From an uncultured Bacteroidales bacterium (GTDB lineage Bacteria; Bacteroidota; Bacteroidia; Bacteroidales; VadinHA17), in contig CAVTDE010000002.1 in the NCBI GenBank assembly GCA_963733455.1, forward strand, positions 41,259 through 105,258: 64,000 bases of DNA, in the 5' to 3' direction. Shown here in pieces: positions 23,273 through 38,824 of the stretch. The notes beneath the pieces were generated by a model, which made no database searches, was not told where the DNA came from, and worked only from the letters and a program-made list of their open reading frames with translations. Each line of letters begins with the position of its first letter. Position 1 is the stretch's first letter. Made by a program: the position numbers and the translations under genes.

Positions 23273-23455
23273 TACCGGAAATATTACTTCGTAAAATTAA
23301 GTAATAATTATTAAAGATATTCCGGGATTTTATAAATGCAAAGAAATTAAGAACTTACATACGTCTTTAGGGTATTTAGGGGCGAAAAACGAACAAGGTA
23401 ATTTTGATACAACCTCATTGCTATTTCCTACCTTCCAGCTCTTTCGCTTCCCATT

Positions 23456-23967
23456 GGTTCACCCCCAACCCCCTAAAGGGGGCTATTAAAAACTATTATT
23501 TAGTCAGGTTTTTGTAAATTTGATAATTCGCTGCACTTAAATATCAGAAGATGAGGTCAAGAGTAATTGAAAGAAATATGTTTTATGGAGCCAGCCGCAA
23601 AACTTTCGAAAAGGCACATGAACTAAGGGGATTAATGACAGAAGCAGAAAAAGTTCTCTGGAATGAACTAAAAAACAGGAAGTTTTTTATACCTAAATTC
23701 AGAAGACAACATCCAATCGATATTTTTATTGTCGATTTTTATTGTCATGAGTTTAAGCTGGTAGTTGAAATTGATGGTGGAATTCATGTGGATAATGAAA
23801 TTCATGAATATGATCTAGGAAGGGAGGCCGATATCACAAAATTTGGTATCAAAATATTGAGATTTACGAACCAGCAAATATTTAATGATATCAATTCGGT
23901 TAAAAATGAGATACTGGTTGCTATTGCAGGTACAAAGGAACCCCCTTTAGGGGGCAGGGGGTGAACC
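23456..23967 (+). mobile_element. DUF559 element copy 1 with 27-bp terminal inverted repeats
   Basis: Left GGTTCACCCCCAACCCCCTAAAGGGGG and right CCCCCTTTAGGGGGCAGGGGGTGAACC match at 25/27 when inverted; mobility itself is inferred. Confidence 0.75.
23551..23964 (+). CDS. DUF559 / Vsr-like endonuclease domain protein
   Basis: MTEAEKVLW, KFRRQHPI..FIVDFYC, LVVEIDGGIH, R...I...G..ILRF.N. Confidence 0.92.
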   Translation: MRSRVIERNMFYGASRKTFEKAHELRGLMTEAEKVLWNELKNRKFFIPKFRRQHPIDIFIVDFYCHEFKLVVEIDGGIHVDNEIHEYDLGREADITKFGIKILRFTNQQIFNDINSVKNEILVAIAGTKEPPLGGRG

Positions 23968-24015
23968 CGATAGGTATTGGGATAGGGTTGAAAAACGAAC
24001 GATGTACTTTTGATC

Positions 24016-28391: not shown

Positions 28392-30720
28392 TTATTTTGA
28401 AGCTGCATCTTACCCTGTTCCCATCCTCATCCACAACAGTCAACACATGATCTCCGGCTTCCGCAAAGATCTCAATCTGGTGAATGGATTTCGTAGTCCC
28501 TATATACTTTTCATCCAGATGCCAGAAGATCTTCTTCGACGGATTTCTGTGCACCACCTCCGGGATTACCCTGGTCAGCTCGCCGGTATGATCGCGCGGA
28601 ATGAATATTTTTATTCCCTGCACAGGGTAAATAAATTCCATGACCGGTTCACTTTTCTCATTCCCACAACCTGCCTTAAATGGCGGAAGAGGCTTATATT
28701 CTGAGTGCTTTTGTCTGTAAAAATATTCCATTGCGGGAGGCAGAACGAACCAGGGTATATTGATTATCTCTGAAGCCGGAACACAATCAGCTGTAACCTG
28801 CTTAGTCCCTGTTTTATCAAGATGAATGATCCTGTGATACGGACAAGCCTCGCTTCTAAGCCCGTTGAGACAGATCTGTTCCTCCCTGGTCCAGGGACAA
28901 TCCGGACCTGCCCTGTACCCGCTCTCACTGCAAACTTCAACAGTCGTCATTTCTTCGTAAGGAGGCGTAAACCAGGGACCTGATTTTAGACTTCCTGCGA
29001 GATCGAACATGATTGGTGCAGCAGCTACAATTCCTGTCAGCCCGGGACGACCTTCACCATCAGCATTTCCCGCCCAGACACCAATAACATAATCGGGTGT
29101 TGTCCCGACTGCCCAGGCATCCCTGAAACCGAAGCTGGTACCTGTTTTCCATGCAAGTTCCGTGGCATGATCAAAATATTGCCAGCCTGTCTCGGTCTCC
29201 GGACGGTTAACTTTCTGCAGGGCTTCATAGGTAATCCAGATCGAAGCTGAAGATAACGGCGGATCTTTTTCCACAATGGGCGCTTCATGATTATTTTCTG
29301 AAGCAACCAGAAAGGGCGGATGGTAATCACCATGTATATATTTCTTTTCATCGTTATATCTTCTCAGAACCCGGGAAATTGAGGCATAAACACCCGTAAG
29401 TTCCCAGAGAGATGTTTCTCCTCCACCCAGAATAAGCGATAACCCGTAATGGTCGGCAGTTCTGTCAAATGAGGTGAAACCTGTCTCTTTAAGAAGTTCA
29501 AGAAATCGCTCCGGAGTATAATCCTGAAGCATTTTAACGGCAGGGATATTAAGCGATTGTGAAAGAGCTGCTCCTGCAATTACAGCACCACTGAAGCTCT
29601 TATCAAAGTTTTTGGGTGCAAATCCCGGAAACCGTGTCGGAATATCAGCTATCAGGGTATTTGGAAGAATTTCTCCCGATTGCTGTACCCCGGCAAAAAG
29701 CAATGGTTTAAGGATGCTTCCTGTACTCCTCCTCGACCTTATTATGTCAACATCTCCTCCATGATCCGAACCATCGGCGTCAGTACTGTTACCCACATAG
29801 GCAAGCACTTCTCCCGATTCAACGCTTACTATAAGGACAGCTGAATTGAAAATGAAATTCCCTGCGAGCTCTTTCTGATGAATGTTTATAATTTCCATGG
29901 CCCGCTTCTGAAGTTCCGGATCAATAGTTGTCCTGATCCTTTCACCCCGGTTTGTACCATAAAAATAATCTGTAAGATGAGGGGCTCCGGAGGGTAATGG
30001 TTTCGGTTCACCGGGAAGGGGCTCATCGAGTGCCAGCACCAGAGTCAGCGAATCGAAGAGATCTCTTTTGAATAACCTGCGGAGGAGATCATCACGTCTG
30101 GTCTTCAATAGTTCCTGATTCTTTCCCGGATAGACAAGTGCAGGGGAATTGGGAAGGACAGCAAATGCTGCCGCTTCAGCCCAGGTTAAGTCCGCAGACG
30201 GTTTCCCGGTGTACCTCCATGCCGCGGCATCAAGCCCCACGTTATTCCCTCCGAAAGGTGCATTCCCGGCATACATTTTCAGTATTGTTTTTTTTGAGCG
30301 TAAGATTTCAAGCTTGACAGCCCCGAGCATTTCGACGATCTTCTCGTAATAGGTTCGCTGCCTGTTACCCCTTGATAGCCTGGCAACCTGCATGGTAATA
30401 GTACTTCCACCGCTTACAATTTCACGTGCTTTCAGATTGCCTGCAATGGCCCGTAAAATCGAAACAGGATTTATTCCGGGATGAAAATAGAAATAACGGT
30501 CCTCAAATGTCAGCAAAGCTTTTTCAAACTTTTCCGGGACCTGTTCTGATGACGGGAACCTCCATTGACCGTCATCAGCAATCCTTCCTCCAAGCAGCGT
30601 GCCGTCACGCGCTTCGACAATTGTCGAAAGAGGGGCTTTGAACCGCGGGACCGGTGAGATCAAAACCGGGATAATGATTACCCCGGCTGCTACAATTGTA
30701 ATTCTGAGCTTTCTATTCAA
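28360..30720 (-). CDS. pbpC: penicillin-binding protein 1C
   Basis: Transglycosylase EDRYFYFHPG and GGSTITMQVAR; transpeptidase STGSILKP, SLN and KTGTS; C-terminal BiPBP domain; adjacent to alpha-2-macroglobulin. Confidence 0.93.
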   Translation of the reverse strand: MNRKLRITIVAAGVIIIPVLISPVPRFKAPLSTIVEARDGTLLGGRIADDGQWRFPSSEQVPEKFEKALLTFEDRYFYFHPGINPVSILRAIAGNLKAREIVSGGSTITMQVARLSRGNRQRTYYEKIVEMLGAVKLEILRSKKTILKMYAGNAPFGGNNVGLDAAAWRYTGKPSADLTWAEAAAFAVLPNSPALVYPGKNQELLKTRRDDLLRRLFKRDLFDSLTLVLALDEPLPGEPKPLPSGAPHLTDYFYGTNRGERIRTTIDPELQKRAMEIINIHQKELAGNFIFNSAVLIVSVESGEVLAYVGNSTDADGSDHGGDVDIIRSRRSTGSILKPLLFAGVQQSGEILPNTLIADIPTRFPGFAPKNFDKSFSGAVIAGAALSQSLNIPAVKMLQDYTPERFLELLKETGFTSFDRTADHYGLSLILGGGETSLWELTGVYASISRVLRRYNDEKKYIHGDYHPPFLVASENNHEAPIVEKDPPLSSASIWITYEALQKVNRPETETGWQYFDHATELAWKTGTSFGFRDAWAVGTTPDYVIGVWAGNADGEGRPGLTGIVAAAPIMFDLAGSLKSGPWFTPPYEEMTTVEVCSESGYRAGPDCPWTREEQICLNGLRSEACPYHRIIHLDKTGTKQVTADCVPASEIINIPWFVLPPAMEYFYRQKHSEYKPLPPFKAGCGNEKSEPVMEFIYPVQGIKIFIPRDHTGELTRVIPEVVHRNPSKKIFWHLDEKYIGTTKSIHQIEIFAEAGDHVLTVVDEDGNRVRCSFKISSPPNQLSSP

Positions 30721-33700
30721 TACCCTGGCCTGTAACTTTTACCCTGTTTCCCGGGATCCTCGAATAACAGTTTCCTGTATACATTGCTTCACACCATAGT
30801 GGAGGCTGGTAAAATTCGCCCTTATATGCAGCATTTAGTATCAGGACAAAAGTTTTTGTTTCACCCGGTTTAAGGCTAAAATATGTGTAAACCCTGTCAT
30901 CCCTGAAATCACGGTAGTCGGATGCGCTCTCTTTTATCCCGTAATTTGCTTCAAACATCCTTGTATTCTGGATCTCCCAGCCCGATGGGACCATTTGAGT
31001 GAGGGCAATATTATCAACACGGTTGAAAGTAGTATTGGTTACCCGAGCCGCCATCATAAAATCAGTCCCTTGCTCAAGATTGGTCTGATCGACGGGTTTC
31101 ATTGTCATATCAAGGTATTCGACTTTCATCTGCAGTCCGTTATCAACTTTGGTTTCATCAGCAACCAGAGGGATCCCTTTCCTGACAAGATTGACATAAA
31201 GGGGTTTATCGGATATGTTCTCGACAGTAAGATTGTTTGCCCCACCTTTAACCTTCAGGTTCTTTAACAAGACTTTGTTTGACTGTATTACCTGATCAGA
31301 TTTCTCTCCGTTAAATGTGATGCTGATCTTTGCCTGTCCCGGCTGACCGGATGAAGTCATTTCCGCAAACTTCATGCAGGAGAAAAGACCCCATGCCAGC
31401 GACTGTGTGCTGTACCAGCTCTCCTGGTTAAGCTCATCGCAGATCGACTTGAGAAGTGGAAATGCTTGTTCTTCCTTTTTAAGGATTGAAAGAGTGTATA
31501 ACACTACCGCTTTATCACGGATGCTGCTTCCATAGTAATATCCTGAATATTCATCTTCGGTTGAAGTATTTCGCATGTCAAGAAGATTTCCGGCCACTTC
31601 AGGTCGGCCCGACACTGCAAAAGCAGCCGCCAGGAACCACTTTGATAACTGTGGGATCCCTGCCGATTCGCGAAGCCTGTTCATTGAACCCCTGTCAGGT
31701 TCTCCTTCAAGCGAAAGTGTAAAGAGTCTGTAAGACTGGTCATTGGCCGATTGTTTGAATTTTGGATCATAACTCCATTCCTGTGCAGTTTTCTTCTGGT
31801 AGCTGGTCCACTTTTGCTTAAATCCGGGCGGTATGCTGTAACCAAGTCTTTCGGCTTCTGTCATAAAATGACCCGCATATGATGTTACCCAGTTGTCAGG
31901 CTGATAATTTCCCGGCCAAAGGGCAACTCCTCCATTATTCATTTGTCTGGAAGCGATGCTGTTAATTGCCTCCTTGATGTTCAAAGCTGATGTTTCGACA
32001 GTTTTGGTATCATTACTTGTAAGAGTTTTAAGCCAGAGCTGCGGAAATGCTGCTGAGATGATCTGCTCAGTGCAACCATAAGGGTAATCAAGCAGATAGT
32101 CAAGCCGTTTTTCAAGATTTATGGAAGGAAGGGATGAGGTTTCCAAAGAAGCAGCATCGGAACCGGTAATACCGAACGGTGAAAAAGTTGTCTCCCACTT
32201 CTCCCCTGGACTGATCAGTTTAAGTTCTGCCCTAGTCTCGGGCGGATTGGGACTTCTGACTTCGATAGCAAGATCATATTCGGCACTCTCGCCACCTCCT
32301 GAAGCCTTAACTTTGATCTTTGCAATACCGGTATTCTCGCCTGCAGTGAATGTAAATTCAGTATCCGTTTCTCCCTGACCCGAAACAGGAATTGTTTTCA
32401 CTTTTTGATCAAAAGAAAGGAGTTCATCCCCTTCGGCGATTACGTCAACTTCCGTTATTCCATCCTTTTGTATAAAAAGGGTAACCGGTAGCGCTACCTT
32501 TTCTCCGGGACTTACCACCCTGGGCGCGGTTACGAGGATCATAAGCGGATCCTTCACAATAATACTCTTGTCAGCAAAACCGAATGCTCTGTCATTGCCT
32601 GCAATAACCATTACTTTTACGGATCCGGTATACTGTGGCAGGGTAATATTATGCATTGCTGTTTTTCCCGGGGCAAGTGTAAAAGGTCCAAGGAATTTTA
32701 CAACGGGTACAAAACGTTTTGCCTTGTTTGCCGAACGGTCAATCACAGCTTCATCCCCTCCTATGGCAAAGATCCTTTCAAGCGTACCTCCGAAGGCACC
32801 AAGCACATAATCATAGAGATCCCAGGTCTGAACTCCAAGCGCTTCCCTTGCATAAAAATATTTCCAGGGATCGGGTGTTTTAAATCCGGTTATATCAAGC
32901 AATCCTTCATCGACGACTGCCAGGGTATAAGTCATCGGTTTCTTTTTCGCCTCGCTCACCTTTATCTGGAAATTCTTCCCCGACCTTATTTCATCGGCGG
33001 ATGAGATTTGCGGACTAAGCCGTGTATCAGGGTCTTCAACCATTATGGGAACAATCCCGTAAAGCCTCATTGGCATATCGTTTATTGTTTGTGCATGAGG
33101 CTGTAAAACAGTCACATAAGCATAAACATTGGGAGCCATCTCCGTTCTTGCCCTGAAAGCTGCCACGGTATTTCCCTTTGTTGTTGGCAGGTGTATCTCA
33201 TCAAGTACCGATGTTGCAGTTTCAAGTGTAACTATTGCCCTGGCATTTTCGGGAGCTGGAAATGTAAGCTTTATTTCATCCCCCGGATTATACTTTTCTT
33301 TATCGGTACTTATTGAAAGAAGTGTTGCGCCCTCGGCATTTCCTTTCATCCCGTATTCCCAGGGCCAGTCGATAAGGATGATCTTTCCTGTTGAATGCCC
33401 TCCGGCTGATGTAGCCCTTATAAGATACCTGCCCCATTGCTTTTTATCTATTTTGAATGAAAAGCTTCCCTGACCGCCCGTTGTCCTTATATGTTTGGTA
33501 ATGACAGGCTTATATATATTACTGGCTATAAAGCCTGCCAGATCCTCCCTGTCTGATTCCCACCACCACCTGTAAGAGATTTTATATATAGTAATCTCAA
33601 CATCACCGGCAACAGGATTTCCCTCAGGATCGACTGTAACAATTTTGACTTCATTTTCGGAATCAGTAAAAAGCATCCTGTCTTTCTCTTTTAAGCCGGG

Positions 33701-36289
33701 CAGGTTAATGCCGGTAAAAACAGGAAAGGGTGCATATTTTTTTGATGTCTGTATAATGCTTTCATCCCCTCCTTTTTCAGAGACTTTTGCAGTAAATACA
33801 GCATTCAGCATTCCGGGAGCGTTGATTTCTTTCCCGGGATTAAATGTTACGGTTGCATTGCCGGTTTCATCGACGGATCCATCGAACATTTTAACAGTTT
33901 CGGAATTGAATTGAATAGCAGGATCATCAAAATTATACTGCGGGAACTTTTTAAATTCTGTCTTAGTCTGTTTCAGAATGTACTCGACAGTCGATTTAAG
34001 GTTTCCTGCCACTGCTCCGTTAAGCCATTTTACTTTCAGGTTTCCTCTGGCAGTATTGTCATCCGGTCCCAGGATCTCACCGGGGAAATCAAGTTCTATT
34101 TTCAGCCTGTTTGGTTTGATAGTCTCAACCCTGACTCGTTTTGTAAAGGTTGCTCCTCCGATAAGGAAACGGGCATTATAATTGCCGGTTACGGCATCCT
34201 CCGGTGTGGCCGTAGTGAAAACCAGAAGACTCCTGCTCTCAGGTTTCTGAACCTGGTAATCAACCCTTTGTTCAAGGGGATTGATGAGCTCAAACTGCAC
34301 GGGATGATCGGCAGGAAGAGCTTTATTCATGTCTTTTATAAAGATTGAAAGATAGATGGAATCGCCCGGACGCCATACATCCCTTTCTCCATAGATAAAA
34401 GCCTTGATCCCCTTCTCGGTTTTATTTCCGGCCACGTCGAATGAACTCACCGAAAGCGAAGATCCGTCGTTAAGTTTAAGATAATTGCGGTCTTTGTCTT
34501 CTTTTGCAATTAGAAGAAATGGTTTTCTCTCACAAAACAGGGTGACAGAACCATTCTGACCGGTATTCCCCGAAACTATAGGCTGAAGCTGGAAATCATA
34601 CACATCAATCCTCACTTCGCTCAAAGGCAATGCCGAGAGAAGGTCATTCACAATTACGTGAAGCTTATTGTCAGGACCTTTTTTTGCTACAATCCCGAAG
34701 TTCGATGCAAGGATATTCCTTGTGACTTTTCTGTCGGGATTAAAGTAAGCTGCCTTGCAGGGATTATCACGGTCCCTCCAGCTGAAGCCATATGAATAAT
34801 AGAGGTAATCATCGCTATCAGCATAATAATTGTCCGGATCGTCCCAGAATTCGCGGCTCGTCTCTGCCGACATCTTAAGCATTTCTTCGTATTTGCCGAA
34901 GTCTTCTCCACCGGCGCAGGGGTAAAGGGAATAGGAAGGCCTCATACTTAGTTCCACCTTGTAAAGTATTCCCGGTTCAACATCTATGTATTCTGCAAGA
35001 TCTATCGTGTGCAGCGCCCAGGCACCAGGATTGCCGCCCGATGGACTTACAAGATCCACCCTGCCGGAATAGACTGGTCTGCCAAACCGTTTGACTGTAT
35101 AGCCTGAACTGATTTCATTCTCCTGAAGAAAATAGGGCAGGTTGTTTTCATATATTTTGATGATCTTAAGATCGACTGCTTTTAAATTTGCAGTTTTAAA
35201 CGGAAAGATGAGATTCTGTGATGATGGAAGTATAACGCCATTTCCTACCAGTTCTATTGATGGCGGAACAGGGGAGAAGTCGATCTTTTTTTGAAAAGAT
35301 GAAGTGAGGGAAATCCCTTTAAAATTTTTGAGCGACTGTTCAACATTCAGTTCAATAACACCTTCAGGTCTGGAAGAAGGGAACAGGCTCACAATGTTGG
35401 AGTTAATGCTTAATGTTGCTTCCATCGAAGGACTCAATCGGATAAGTCCCTCGGTTTCCTGTGAAGCATCGAGCGGATCGGAAAAAACAAGCTGTATGCC
35501 CTGACTTTCTCCCTGGCTGGCGATCAGATCGATGACTGAAAACTCGGTGGAAGGAGGGATCCTGACTGATGCCGAACCTTTCTGTCTTACTCCAGCCTGT
35601 GTTCCGTCCCAGTCGAGTTCGAGTTTCTGTGATTTAGCTGATCTTTCAATATTTATTACAGTAAATTTATGGATTAATTTGTCGGAATGATCCCATGCGA
35701 TCTCCATCTTCTTCCTCCCGGTTTTTGTTCTCAGGTACGATTCAACCTCTGAAGAAGCTATATAATCTGAAGCAACAACTTCGCCATGGAGAGAATATTT
35801 ATTACCTTCCGGAGAACTCTCCAGCGCGCCGGTTGTAACAATGAAATCTTTTTTTATGGTACTGACCCTTATGGGGAAGACCTTCAGATTGTCTTTCACC
35901 TCAGCAAGTTTATCAAGATTCAGTTTTCCGGTATAGGTTGTACCCGGATCAAGAGTTTTGGCTGGTTTGAAAGCCAGGGTTACATCGTCAGTCCATTCAG
36001 CCTTACCTCTTATTACAGGTTCAAAGAGAAAGAGTGCTGCTGGTGTCTGCTTGTTGGCCTTAACTGCAAATTCAGGAGTAAAGCGAATTTCAATGACGGA
36101 ATTCACAGAAATTATCCCGGAGGTATATCCGGAGATATATTCGGAGAAACCCTTATCTATGGGGATATTGATCTCCTCAGTTGGCTGTATCTTTTTTAGG
36201 GTGAATTTTACAGGAGGTTTCTCCCTAGGACCGCAGGACGAAACCGCTAACAGGATCAAGACCGGAAGGAACAGTTTTGCAGCTTTCAT
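30713..36289 (-). CDS. bacterial alpha-2-macroglobulin (YfhM-like lipoprotein)
   Basis: Lipobox VSS-C; ERDVWRPG, LAVVDEG and thioester motif YPYGCTEQ; overlaps the pbpC start. Confidence 0.92.
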   Translation of the reverse strand: MKAAKLFLPVLILLAVSSCGPREKPPVKFTLKKIQPTEEINIPIDKGFSEYISGYTSGIISVNSVIEIRFTPEFAVKANKQTPAALFLFEPVIRGKAEWTDDVTLAFKPAKTLDPGTTYTGKLNLDKLAEVKDNLKVFPIRVSTIKKDFIVTTGALESSPEGNKYSLHGEVVASDYIASSEVESYLRTKTGRKKMEIAWDHSDKLIHKFTVINIERSAKSQKLELDWDGTQAGVRQKGSASVRIPPSTEFSVIDLIASQGESQGIQLVFSDPLDASQETEGLIRLSPSMEATLSINSNIVSLFPSSRPEGVIELNVEQSLKNFKGISLTSSFQKKIDFSPVPPSIELVGNGVILPSSQNLIFPFKTANLKAVDLKIIKIYENNLPYFLQENEISSGYTVKRFGRPVYSGRVDLVSPSGGNPGAWALHTIDLAEYIDVEPGILYKVELSMRPSYSLYPCAGGEDFGKYEEMLKMSAETSREFWDDPDNYYADSDDYLYYSYGFSWRDRDNPCKAAYFNPDRKVTRNILASNFGIVAKKGPDNKLHVIVNDLLSALPLSEVRIDVYDFQLQPIVSGNTGQNGSVTLFCERKPFLLIAKEDKDRNYLKLNDGSSLSVSSFDVAGNKTEKGIKAFIYGERDVWRPGDSIYLSIFIKDMNKALPADHPVQFELINPLEQRVDYQVQKPESRSLLVFTTATPEDAVTGNYNARFLIGGATFTKRVRVETIKPNRLKIELDFPGEILGPDDNTARGNLKVKWLNGAVAGNLKSTVEYILKQTKTEFKKFPQYNFDDPAIQFNSETVKMFDGSVDETGNATVTFNPGKEINAPGMLNAVFTAKVSEKGGDESIIQTSKKYAPFPVFTGINLPGLKEKDRMLFTDSENEVKIVTVDPEGNPVAGDVEITIYKISYRWWWESDREDLAGFIASNIYKPVITKHIRTTGGQGSFSFKIDKKQWGRYLIRATSAGGHSTGKIILIDWPWEYGMKGNAEGATLLSISTDKEKYNPGDEIKLTFPAPENARAIVTLETATSVLDEIHLPTTKGNTVAAFRARTEMAPNVYAYVTVLQPHAQTINDMPMRLYGIVPIMVEDPDTRLSPQISSADEIRSGKNFQIKVSEAKKKPMTYTLAVVDEGLLDITGFKTPDPWKYFYAREALGVQTWDLYDYVLGAFGGTLERIFAIGGDEAVIDRSANKAKRFVPVVKFLGPFTLAPGKTAMHNITLPQYTGSVKVMVIAGNDRAFGFADKSIIVKDPLMILVTAPRVVSPGEKVALPVTLFIQKDGITEVDVIAEGDELLSFDQKVKTIPVSGQGETDTEFTFTAGENTGIAKIKVKASGGGESAEYDLAIEVRSPNPPETRAELKLISPGEKWETTFSPFGITGSDAASLETSSLPSINLEKRLDYLLDYPYGCTEQIISAAFPQLWLKTLTSNDTKTVETSALNIKEAINSIASRQMNNGGVALWPGNYQPDNWVTSYAGHFMTEAERLGYSIPPGFKQKWTSYQKKTAQEWSYDPKFKQSANDQSYRLFTLSLEGEPDRGSMNRLRESAGIPQLSKWFLAAAFAVSGRPEVAGNLLDMRNTSTEDEYSGYYYGSSIRDKAVVLYTLSILKKEEQAFPLLKSICDELNQESWYSTQSLAWGLFSCMKFAEMTSSGQPGQAKISITFNGEKSDQVIQSNKVLLKNLKVKGGANNLTVENISDKPLYVNLVRKGIPLVADETKVDNGLQMKVEYLDMTMKPVDQTNLEQGTDFMMAARVTNTTFNRVDNIALTQMVPSGWEIQNTRMFEANYGIKESASDYRDFRDDRVYTYFSLKPGETKTFVLILNAAYKGEFYQPPLWCEAMYTGNCYSRIPGNRVKVTGQGIE

Positions 36290-36576
36290 AATATGGGGAT
36301 CAAATCATTATCGAAGCAATTCACAGGATATCCAGTAAAACGGGGAAAGAAATTAATCCAAGATTAAAAGTACGAAAAAGAAATGAGACTTGCGGAAGTC
36401 AATCACTTACCTCCATGAAATCAATCTCTCAACCCCATTGGTTAACCCCCAACCCCCACCACATGCCTCCCCTGCAGGCTGGCTCCTTCGCTGAGACTTG
36501 CCCACTGGGCAGATATACTATTAACTCAGTTCCCTGGGGGCTTGAAAAAGCCTTCTTTAACCTTCACAGCTCGCTA

Positions 36577-36861
36577 GGTTCACCCCCAACCCCCTAAAGG
36601 GGGCTTGATATTTGCTACCTTCCAGCTCTTTCGCTTCCCGCTGGTTGTAAATTTGTTAATTTGCTGCACTTAAATATCAGAAGATGTGATCAATAGTAAT
36701 TGAAAGGAACATGTTTTATGGAGCCAGTCATAAAACTTCCGAAAAGGCACATGAATTAAGGGGATTTATGAATATTTAACGATATCAATTAGGTTAAAAA
36801 GGAGATGCTGGTTGCTATGGCAGGCAAAAAGGAACCCCCTTTAGGGGGCAGGGGGTGAACC
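36577..36861 (+). mobile_element. internally deleted (MITE-like) DUF559 element, copy 3
   Basis: Same TIRs as copy 1; the 5' end (GAAAGGAACATGTTTTATGGAGCCAG) and 3' end of the gene are joined with about 240 bp missing; ATG context mutated. Confidence 0.8.
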
Positions 36862-36877
36862 AAGTCAGAATTGAATC

Positions 36878-38824
36878 TTACAGCAAAATCCTGTTCCCCA
36901 GCTTCTTCGAGATCAACCCGAGTGCAATGCTGAGGTTGTTATATCTTTTCTGCAGAGAAAGAATCTTTTCCTGATCATTCGATTTTACGGCTTCCTCAAG
37001 AAGGATCATGATCTCCTTCCGGCGTTCATTTATCTTATCGCTTTTGAATTTTAGGACAGCATCAGGGACTATCTCCCTGAGCTTCATTTCCTCGGTTTCA
37101 ACATATGTTTGTTTATCCTGCCATATCTTGCTCAGTTCGTGCGAATCGGAGAGTAGATCCGCAGAAAGCTGCGATATATCGGGATCCTCATGTTTTATAA
37201 AATGTTTTTCGCCGGGAAAGAGCCCCTGCTCTGAGTTAAACCTGAATTCAGCAAAGATTTTGGCACAGACAGTGTTTTCGAAGGCGAGATCGTCTGATAT
37301 TATTTCATTAACAATATAATCAGACACCGTCACAGCTTCTTCCTTGCCATCCACTCCGTTTATCCTGCGTTCCAGGACCTCACTTCCATATTTCAGAAGC
37401 AGCCGTGTTATCTCTCTCTCCGAATAATACGTTGTGGTTGTTGGCCTTACAGGTTTCACTATTTCAGGAGGCGGCACCGGAAGATCCTCCAGTCCGGGGT
37501 ATTTGTTCCTTTCTGTAAACGACTTCTGCTGCATGAGCTTGTTCACCTCATGATAAAGCACCGGCTCGGGGACCTCAAGAACTACGCTGCACTCCTTTAT
37601 GTACACTGTCTGTGTTATCGCCTCAGGGATAACGGCAATCGACTTTACAACATCCCTGATAAGGTTTGCTTTTTTGACAGGATCAGTGCTGGCTTCCGAT
37701 AGAAGGAGCTGAGTCTTGAACCGTATGAAATCAGTCTCGTGATCTTTGATGTACTTTGTAAACTCTTCATTGCTTACTTTTTTGGAGTATGAATCCGGAT
37801 CCTCACCATCGGGCAGCAAAACTATCCTGACATTCATTCCTTCCTCAAGCACAATATCGATACCACGGATTGAAGCTTTGATCCCTGCAGCATCACCGTC
37901 ATAAAGTATGGTAATGTTCGGAGTGAACCTTTTGATCAGCCTCACCTGTTCCCGGGTAAGCGAGGTACCTGATGATGCGACGACATTCTCGATGTTTACT
38001 TCGTGAAGCGACAACACATCAGTGTATCCCTCAACAAGGTAGCACCTGTCCTCCTGAGTGATCATCTTCCTTGCCTGGTAGATGCCGTAAAGGATCCGGC
38101 TCTTGTGATATATTTCAGATTCCGGAGAATTAAGGTATTTCGCGCTTTTTGGATCTGCCTTAAGGATTCGTCCGCCAAAACCAAGTACCTGTCCCGACAA
38201 GCCATGTATGGGGAACATCACTCTTCCGCTGAACCTGTCGAAAATGCGCTCCTCGTGCTGTATTGTAAGGCCGGTCTTTACCAGGAAATCCTGTTTATAC
38301 CCGTCTTCAAGCGCTTTTTTTGAAAATGCGTCCCGCTGTTCAAAGCTGTAACCGACCTCAAATTTCTTAAGTACGTTCTGTTTGAATCCTCTTTCCTTAA
38401 AGTAGGTGAGTCCGACAGTAGTACCCTCATCCGAGTTTAAGAGATTCTCAGTGAACTGTCGTGCAGCATAAGCTGTGACAACAAGCAGACTCTCCCTTTC
38501 ATTCTGTTTCTCAATCTCTTCCTGGGTCCTTTCTTTTTCAACAATCTCGATATGGTATTTCCTTGCAAGATATTTAAGGGCTTCAGGGTAGGTGAGGTGT
38601 TCATGTTCCATTATGAAGTTGACCGAATTCCCAACCTTCCCGCAACCGAAGCATTTGAATATCTCCTTCGACGGCGATACCGTGAATGAAGGAGTCTTCT
38701 CATTATGGAACGGACACAATCCCAAATAGTTAACTCCTCGTTTCTTCAGCGGAACAAACTCCTGAACTACATCAACGATCTCGGCAGCATCGAATATTCT
38801 TTCTATGGTCGGGCGATCAATCAT
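36878..38824 (-). CDS. dnaG: DNA primase
   Basis: CPFH.EKTPSF zinc finger, KCFGCG, KYLNSPE, VEGYTDV, TOPRIM YDGD.AG. Confidence 0.97.
   Translation of the reverse strand: MIDRPTIERIFDAAEIVDVVQEFVPLKKRGVNYLGLCPFHNEKTPSFTVSPSKEIFKCFGCGKVGNSVNFIMEHEHLTYPEALKYLARKYHIEIVEKERTQEEIEKQNERESLLVVTAYAARQFTENLLNSDEGTTVGLTYFKERGFKQNVLKKFEVGYSFEQRDAFSKKALEDGYKQDFLVKTGLTIQHEERIFDRFSGRVMFPIHGLSGQVLGFGGRILKADPKSAKYLNSPESEIYHKSRILYGIYQARKMITQEDRCYLVEGYTDVLSLHEVNIENVVASSGTSLTREQVRLIKRFTPNITILYDGDAAGIKASIRGIDIVLEEGMNVRIVLLPDGEDPDSYSKKVSNEEFTKYIKDHETDFIRFKTQLLLSEASTDPVKKANLIRDVVKSIAVIPEAITQTVYIKECSVVLEVPEPVLYHEVNKLMQQKSFTERNKYPGLEDLPVPPPEIVKPVRPTTTTYYSEREITRLLLKYGSEVLERRINGVDGKEEAVTVSDYIVNEIISDDLAFENTVCAKIFAEFRFNSEQGLFPGEKHFIKHEDPDISQLSADLLSDSHELSKIWQDKQTYVETEEMKLREIVPDAVLKFKSDKINERRKEIMILLEEAVKSNDQEKILSLQKRYNNLSIALGLISKKLGNRILL

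Follow-up and report, generated by a model that had tools for sequence, protein, structure and literature searches.

The 285-bp DUF559 derivative at positions 36577-36861 of the window (the whole 64,000-nt stretch analysed, C2:41259-105258 of genome G000) is, in our judgement, probably a dead single-copy remnant, and the apparent swap of terminal inverted repeat (TIR) and flank at its left end would then reflect the phase of a tandem array together with one deletion. The genome comprises 5.16 Mb in 10 contigs, and the derivative lies on a 135-kb contig in the spacer between an alpha-2-macroglobulin (A2M) gene (30713-36289, minus strand) and dnaG (36878-38824, minus strand). An earlier note on this DNA had read the unit as a non-autonomous element whose end had been removed and a new end added further out, with flanking DNA captured in the process. 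This interpretation is partly supported by our analysis: DNA that stands outside the hairpin 'TIR' of a gene-bearing copy does end up inside a hairpin-bounded unit, and the replacement of an end is not demonstrated.

The gene-bearing copy in question, copy 1, has the order 31-mer, GGTT, hairpin motif (23460-23483), leader and a 137-aa DUF559 gene (23551-23964), the stop codon of which falls within the right hairpin repeat. Its 42-mer (23418-23459), which includes the 31-mer, and the hairpin motif that follows it make up one 66-bp unit on the plus strand (23418-23483), in the other phase from that of the derivative, and this unit served as our reference. A paralog on contig C7 is 94% identical to copy 1 (protein 95%), and copy 2 is 73% identical to it. 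Pfam searches identified DUF559 in copy 1 (E 2.7e-31, residues 19-125) and in copy 2 (E 4.8e-33). When DUF559 was compared with the PDB by phmmer (E<=1), only the uncharacterised structure 3HRL was matched (E 1.4e-16), and 3R3P was not returned.

The derivative, read on the plus strand, begins with GGTT and the hairpin motif CACCCCCAACCCCCTAAAGGGGGC (together 36577-36604, the motif itself at 36581-36604), which in array terms is an outer hairpin. This left end agrees at 28/28 positions with both copy 1 (23456-23483) and the innermost motif of C7, and its hairpin, CCCCC-TAAA-GGGGG, has a predicted DNA fold of -5.5 kcal/mol. The hairpin is followed by the 42-mer (36605-36646), which consists of the 11-nt spacer TTGATATTTGC and the 31-mer (36616-36646) and has its homologues in copy-1 23418-23459 and in the C7 units, and then at once by the leader (36647-36683). 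The leader, placed by alignment, carries TAAATTTG, which resembles the Bacteroidetes -7 box, TAnnTTTG, so that the leader may represent a promoter whose upstream part was lost with the deletion described below. An N-terminal gene remnant (36684-36771) comes next and on translation reads ATG and then TGA at codon 2. It is joined at 36771-36772 to a C-terminal gene remnant with the right end (36772-36861), the final 34 nt of which are AAAGGAACCCCCTTTAGGGGGCAGGGGGTGAACC, with the old stop codon TGA inside the repeat. The derivative, copy 1 and C7 agree in every one of these final 34 nt, and the C-terminal and right part as a whole shows 92% identity over 91 nt to both of these copies.

The coding loss is extensive. 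The earlier note had put the missing part of the gene at about 240 bp, and the alignment fixes it at exactly 239 bp, equivalent to copy-1 23639-23877. This deletion is not a multiple of 3 and takes out the catalytic core. By tblastn, the derivative retains only DUF559 residues 1-29 and 110-137 at 82-83% identity (83% for residues 1-29 of copy 1). With the core missing and a stop at codon 2, the derivative does not belong among DUF559 (PF04480) proteins, and it is a pseudogene of the family rather than a working member. An Rfam scan of the window returned one tRNA and nothing else.

A three-way alignment of the derivative with copy 1 and C7 needs two gaps only, of 54 and 239 bp. Over the same 265 columns, the identities are 88.7% between the derivative and copy 1, 90.2% between the derivative and C7, and 91.3% between copy 1 and C7. 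The smaller gap accounts for the unusual left end: the 31-mer abuts the leader GTAAATTTG in the derivative because 54 bp, copy-1 23458-23511, are missing there. The junction lies at 36645-36646 with a 2-nt TT ambiguity, GGTT adjoins both breakpoints, and the innermost hairpin and 28-30 nt of the proximal leader are gone. Between copy 1 and copy 2, the hairpin, the following CT(A/T)TTAAAAAC..TTATTTA..CAGG and the leader are conserved, and these 30 nt after the hairpin are absent from the derivative. Since they are kept in copy 2, they are ancestral and were lost in the derivative.

We then considered the DNA that appears on different sides of the hairpin at the two loci. Within the window, there are exactly two occurrences of the 24-mer TACCTTCCAGCTCTTTCGCTTCCC, one starting at 23429 and one at 36616, where none is expected by chance. 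The earlier note had placed a 31-mer outside the left hairpin of copy 1 (23429-23459) and inside that of the derivative (36616-36646), and these coordinates are correct: the 31-mer stands directly outside GGTT|CACCCCCAACCCCCTAAAGGGGGC at copy 1 and 11 nt inside the identical motif in the derivative, and the two 31-mers match at 29/31 positions. The shared piece is really 42 nt long (23418-23459 versus 36605-36646, 38/42); the 11 nt ahead of the copy-1 31-mer (TTGCTATTTCC) match the derivative spacer at 9/11 positions. The derivative 42-mer matches the C7 units at about 36/42. It is no more diverged than the interior of the element, with 38/42 against 88.7% overall for derivative and copy 1.

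The 42-mer is confined in this genome to four loci according to a sensitive genome-wide BLAST search, namely copy 1, the derivative, C7 (five times; matches at C7:224424-224770) and C10:375674, and searches of 40 related genomes, including 24 from the same genus, did not find it. At all four loci (4/4 of the subfamily) it adjoins the left hairpin, and at C10:375674, which is a solo left end, it abuts GGTT|CACCCCC. The earlier note had allowed that the 31-mer might be an independent abundant repeat; this is ruled out by the same kind of sensitive search, as the 31-mer is rare and always linked to the hairpin. Its reading of the 31-mer as a private flank of copy 1 does not hold either, given the four loci and the hairpin linkage. 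Moreover, the genes neighbouring copy 1 are 743 bp apart, versus 4 bp between their orthologs in a sister species, G010 (49% amino acid identity). This 4-bp spacer means that the 42-mer, the cassette and both B ends at copy 1 are extra DNA, and it rules out that the 31-mer is the ancestral host flank there. Here B denotes another repeat end (..ACTTTTGATACAACCTC), present in two copies near copy 1, which is the terminus of an abundant repeat of ~140 bp. The outermost 42-mer comes directly after a B-type terminus at copy 1, C7 and C10, with no hairpin ahead of it. The block common to the loci thus reaches at least 42 nt past the hairpin, and about 70-85 nt at three loci, so the copied DNA does not end on the left at the hairpin 'TIR'. 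On the right side, homology ends sharply after GGGGGTGAACC.

The ~140-bp repeat itself is MITE-like, with inverted ends GAGGYTGTATCAAAAGT / ACTTTTGATACARCCTC, and has termini at 23366-23416 and 23977-24015. The exact terminal 10-mers number about 40 in each orientation, where chance would give about 5, and there are 8 exact inverted pairs with a spacing of 100-213 bp. The element often has a TG-type hairpin motif inside it. Copies of its right terminus stand on both sides of copy 1 in direct orientation. We also compared the 42-mer with the hairpin-outer flank of this repeat (..ACACCATTCCAGTTTTTT); the relationship was marginal (shuffle p 0.016-0.19) and was not used.

The order seen in the derivative has a direct counterpart in C7. 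Upstream of the C7 DUF559 gene, Tandem Repeats Finder (TRF) reports an array at C7:224466-224771 with a period of 66, 4.6 copies and 93% matches, in which every unit consists of the hairpin motif (24 nt), TTTCTATTTGC (11 nt) and the 31-mer (31 nt). The hairpin, TTGATATTTGC and 31-mer of the derivative have the same 24+11+31 build. Across a unit boundary, such an array thus normally runs from hairpin through spacer to 31-mer; copy 1 has one unit, read as 42-mer and then hairpin, and the derivative shows one as hairpin and then 42-mer. With this array order and one 54-bp deletion, the removal of an end and addition of a new one, as proposed in the earlier note, becomes unnecessary.

Left of the derivative hairpin, there are also traces of a further unit. 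A degenerate outer unit can be recognised at 36536-36580 on the plus strand, starting with GGGGGCTTGA, continuing with a 31-mer-like part, ACCTTCACAGCT...CGCTAGGTT, that contains an 11-nt gap, and ending in GGTT. The sequence GGGGGCTTGA occurs at 36536 and 36599, 63 nt apart. The 36 nt left of the derivative hairpin align end-to-end with the 31-mer with the 11-nt gap, and 0.08% of shuffles scored as well; their score ties for third among 77 genomic hairpin flanks, behind copy 1 and C7. These array remnants indicate that the ancestor had at least two units. Further left, the spacer is filled by a member of another repeat family (36442-36511, ..AACCCCCAACCCCCACCACATGCCTCCCCTGCAGGCTGGCTCCTTCGCT..), which gave 98 BLAST matches including the query, forms some 74-bp tandem arrays (C6:360028-360596) and is also present in relatives of the same genus.

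Tandem duplication across a hairpin is a recurrent rearrangement at both cassette ends. At the right end of the C7 cassette (C7:225099-225381), the last 128 bp of the gene and the right hairpin are tandemly duplicated (155 bp, 1.8 copies), and the second copy has no hairpin and abuts a terminus of the ~140-bp repeat. Copy 2 has tandem duplications of 141 bp and 63 bp that span the hairpin, and at C5:1206882 there are 73-bp tandem units that do so; the arrays of the related genome G005, described below, belong to the same pattern. It is the phase of the duplication that decides whether flank lands inside the hairpin or gene sequence outside it. Units 2-5 of the C7 array have 42-mers that are the same or one base apart. 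Each of the four outer C7 hairpins carries 3-5 C-to-A or G-to-A changes by which its stem is disrupted, with predicted DNA folds of -1.3 to -2.4 kcal/mol versus -5.5 for the perfect motif, and the innermost hairpin alone is perfect. The C7 changes thus appear to be concentrated in the supernumerary hairpins.

We propose that the ancestor of the derivative was a DUF559 cassette of the copy-1/C7 subfamily with at least two of the 66-bp units of hairpin and 42-mer. A 54-bp deletion then took the innermost hairpin and the proximal leader and joined the 31-mer to the leader, a frameshifting deletion of 239 bp took the nuclease core, and a nonsense change arose at codon 2; the array, both deletions and the stop codon are themselves visible in the sequences. 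The 54-bp loss may have been an ordinary short-homology deletion at TT, beside the GGTT present on both sides, and the arrays may have arisen by slippage, unequal exchange or break repair at the G5/C5 hairpin. The perfect hairpins would have been kept by homogenisation with the ~77 other copies or by a function in cis, such as that of a dnaG terminator.

The state of the same spacer in related genomes is consistent with such a history. In a related species, G005, the syntenic A2M|dnaG spacer contains an intact DUF559 gene of 131 aa with the same orientation, and the N-terminus of its A2M is 70% identical at the amino acid level. On the left side of this gene are about 900 bp of arrays composed of 17-nt tip units (TTTTACCCCCAACCTGG) and full hairpins, with mirror arrays on the right; the cassette occupies about 750-2540 of locus L013 (G005:C8:26900-30400). 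Its innermost left hairpin is half-deleted, with TAAAGGGGAGGC kept at the inner position, and its outer hairpins are perfect and its gene intact. The spacer of G024 is about 100 bp long and empty, and it is the sole clean syntenic empty site. Three further genomes were dropped as empty A2M/dnaG sites (G010, G018 and G004), the neighbour there not being an A2M ortholog, though their dnaG 3' flanks are short and cassette-free. In G000, G005 and G024, the native spacer motif ..attacgaaaaag.. is retained on the A2M side, so both insertions lie within the final few tens of bases before the dnaG stop. The shared occupancy of G000 and G005 could be due to two independent insertions, and dnaG identity does not mark the two as sisters.

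No second locus with both deletions of the derivative was found: it is single-copy in the genome and absent from the 40 related genomes. An exact 57-mer query for its junction had no match in the metagenome contigs scanned, and one looser 22-mer match in these contigs lies inside an unrelated coding region and was taken as chance. The label 'non-autonomous derivative', which implied a mobilised unit, is thus not borne out by its copy number. Given this single-copy status and the intact cassette that G005 has in the corresponding spacer, the simplest reading of the sequences is that a once-intact cassette decayed where it stood.

The ends of the derivative fit less easily with decay. Inverted arms GGTTCACCCCC..CCCCCTAAAGGGGG are present at both ends and match copy 1 and C7. 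Taken together, the two ends are letter-perfect against these copies at 62/62 positions (28 nt left and 34 nt right), and the other 231 columns are 11-13% diverged (Fisher p 0.0005 and 0.0015). Such exact ends in a dead copy are outside what plain decay predicts, and the outer hairpin could be a working end. They could equally reflect gene conversion or homogenisation among the about 77 hairpins of the genome; the window contains nine occurrences of the hairpin motif, CACCCCCnnCCCCCTAAAGGGGG, and the whole genome 77 copies. In addition, the right hairpin read on the minus strand (36834-36849) is GCCCCCTAAAGGGGGT TCCTTTTTGC, a terminator-like stem with a T-tract about 28 nt after the dnaG stop, and its retention could be due to use as the dnaG terminator. 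The flanks, ..GCTCGCTA|GGTT.. on the left and ..AACC|AAGTCAGA.. on the right, show no direct repeat and hence no target-site duplication, and the same is true of copy 1.

The junction of the derivative is also shared. C7 and the derivative join hairpin, spacer and 31-mer in the same way, with hardly any microhomology by which such a joint would recur, and in the 5' part of the gene the derivative shares 7/8 informative sites with C7. A common junction with so little microhomology implies that the array probably moved between loci and that copying was not bounded by the innermost hairpin. As far as the sequences go, this suggests that the array arose once and was then carried to a second locus.

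These observations bear on a broader scheme, which we regard as possible but rather doubtful, in which hairpin ends migrate outward: hairpin and flank are tandemly duplicated together, inner hairpins are mutated or deleted, an outer hairpin becomes the working end and the flank is copied onward to new loci. The derivative, the C7 array and the G005 cassette would then represent three of its stages. The perfect ends, the mutated C7 hairpins and the shared junction are equally compatible with gene conversion of a homing-like kind, in which flanks are co-converted, and with homogenisation among the 77 hairpin copies of the genome.

Applied to the derivative alone, end replacement with flank capture would mean that the outer hairpin took over as the end, the 42-mer became internal and the 285-bp unit could be moved in trans by intact DUF559 copies. 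We consider this unlikely, somewhat more so than the outward scheme. It would explain why both ends are identical while the interior has diverged, and the half-deleted innermost G005 hairpin beside perfect outer ones and an intact gene fits it, as does the junction common to two loci with 7/8 sites shared with C7, where array DNA seems to have been copied along. The species-specific 42-mer is what a recent acquisition would leave, and the mutation of all outer hairpins in C7, where the inner one is perfect, is also counted in its favour. However, a movable unit is at odds with a derivative that is single-copy and absent from the 40 genomes and the scanned metagenome contigs, and the four loci carry the same 42-mer rather than varied flanks. 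Moreover, the block carried at copy 1, C7 and C10 is not bounded by a hairpin, no target-site duplication is visible, and gene conversion or terminator use would give perfect ends equally well. We therefore continue with array phase, one 54-bp deletion and decay in place as the preferred reading.

Two further alternatives were weighed. That the order of the derivative (hairpin, 42-mer, leader) is ancestral and copy 1 and C7 later gained a hairpin is highly improbable: the segment after the last perfect hairpin of the G005 array (TTTGTTTCACCTTCCAACT) does bear a weak likeness to the 42-mer (shuffle p about 0.012), but the 30 nt after the hairpin are conserved between copies 1 and 2 and missing from the derivative, and G005 retains its half-hairpin at the inner position. 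An assembly artefact, with reads from copy 1, C7 and the hairpins collapsed or mis-joined in a repeat-rich region, has hardly any likelihood in our view, since 15 private substitutions among the 265 aligned columns mean that the derivative is not a chimera of copy-1 or C7 reads, its junctions are unique, and it is enclosed by unique genes on both sides within one 135-kb contig of a 10-contig genome.

We also compared the cassettes with known systems. Like MITE-like TIR elements, the derivative is a short unit whose inverted repeats are shared with gene-bearing copies and whose coding sequence is mostly deleted. It differs from them in being single-copy and without a target-site duplication, where such elements have several copies and a duplication, and in that the Vsr-like DUF559 nuclease is not a known transposase. 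In addition, what serves as its left 'TIR' is a single tandem-array unit, past which the repeated block continues for at least 42 nt.

REP/REPIN sequences with their RAYT partners and BIMEs are short GC-rich intergenic hairpins that occur singly, inverted, in tandem and in mosaics. The 77 dispersed hairpins of this genome resemble them, being often located just after genes and terminator-like. In contrast to REPs, the motif brackets DUF559 genes, and its right copy supplies the last codons and the stop. A REP-like system would also place the motif beside a Y1 transposase gene, and none of the five Y1 transposase (PF01797) genes in the genome has the motif within 600 bp; other hairpins are found there instead. 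Separately, a ~744-bp tandem duplication at C10:256403-257491 contains two Y1 transposase (PF01797) genes that are identical to each other and flanked by GTCCCGTAGGGAC-type hairpins, which are not of the DUF559-end family. A repeat at 23335-23359, near copy 1, TTATAAATGCAAAGAAATTAAGAAC, has four further near-exact copies (C9:253324, C3:306016, C5:1014048 and C7:244564), and a Y1 transposase gene (C9:253882-254223) is located about 550 bp away from the C9 copy.

In a superfamily scheme (PMC3424549), DUF559 is placed together with Vsr and the entry for a group I intron homing endonuclease, and it is this grouping that relates the cassettes to the Vsr-like EDxHD family, a member of which is the homing endonuclease I-Bth0305I (PDB 3R3P; PMC3239194). 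The cassettes have in common with free-standing EDxHD homing genes a small nuclease of Vsr-like fold, an outer flank (the 42-mer and the end of a neighbouring repeat) that recurs between loci in the way expected from co-conversion, and a site that is occupied or empty across species: G000 has a remnant, G005 an intact gene and G024 an empty spacer, these being different species and not alleles of one population. Unlike homing genes, the cassettes are not set in an intron or intein and lack an N-terminal DNA-binding extension, their nuclease is a predicted one that gave no match to 3R3P, and they carry hairpin inverted repeats and end arrays, which homing genes are not known to have.

In ISEcp1-type one-ended transposition, and in read-through by IS91/ISCR elements and Helitrons, alternative outer ends capture flanking DNA. 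These are the closest precedent for a distal end that moves adjacent DNA. In those systems, however, the flanks vary from locus to locus and the enzymes are of the DDE or HUH type, whereas here the same 42-mer recurs, DUF559 is the sole gene and the outer end was provided by local duplication. A literature search found no paper describing DUF559 genes as hairpin-bounded cassettes.

By itself, the derivative is a decayed gene remnant. Its wider meaning lies in the behaviour of the ends, with a 42-nt segment, joined at three loci by the end of a neighbouring repeat, that travels with the hairpin, hairpins that are letter-perfect on a dead copy, and supernumerary array hairpins that seem to be selectively mutated. 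The outward migration of hairpin ends, if true, would represent a mode of flank capture as yet undescribed in any class of mobile element. For the family, the analysis provides a dissection of previously undescribed hairpin-ended DUF559 cassettes, which constrains models of their spread by transposition versus homing-like conversion.
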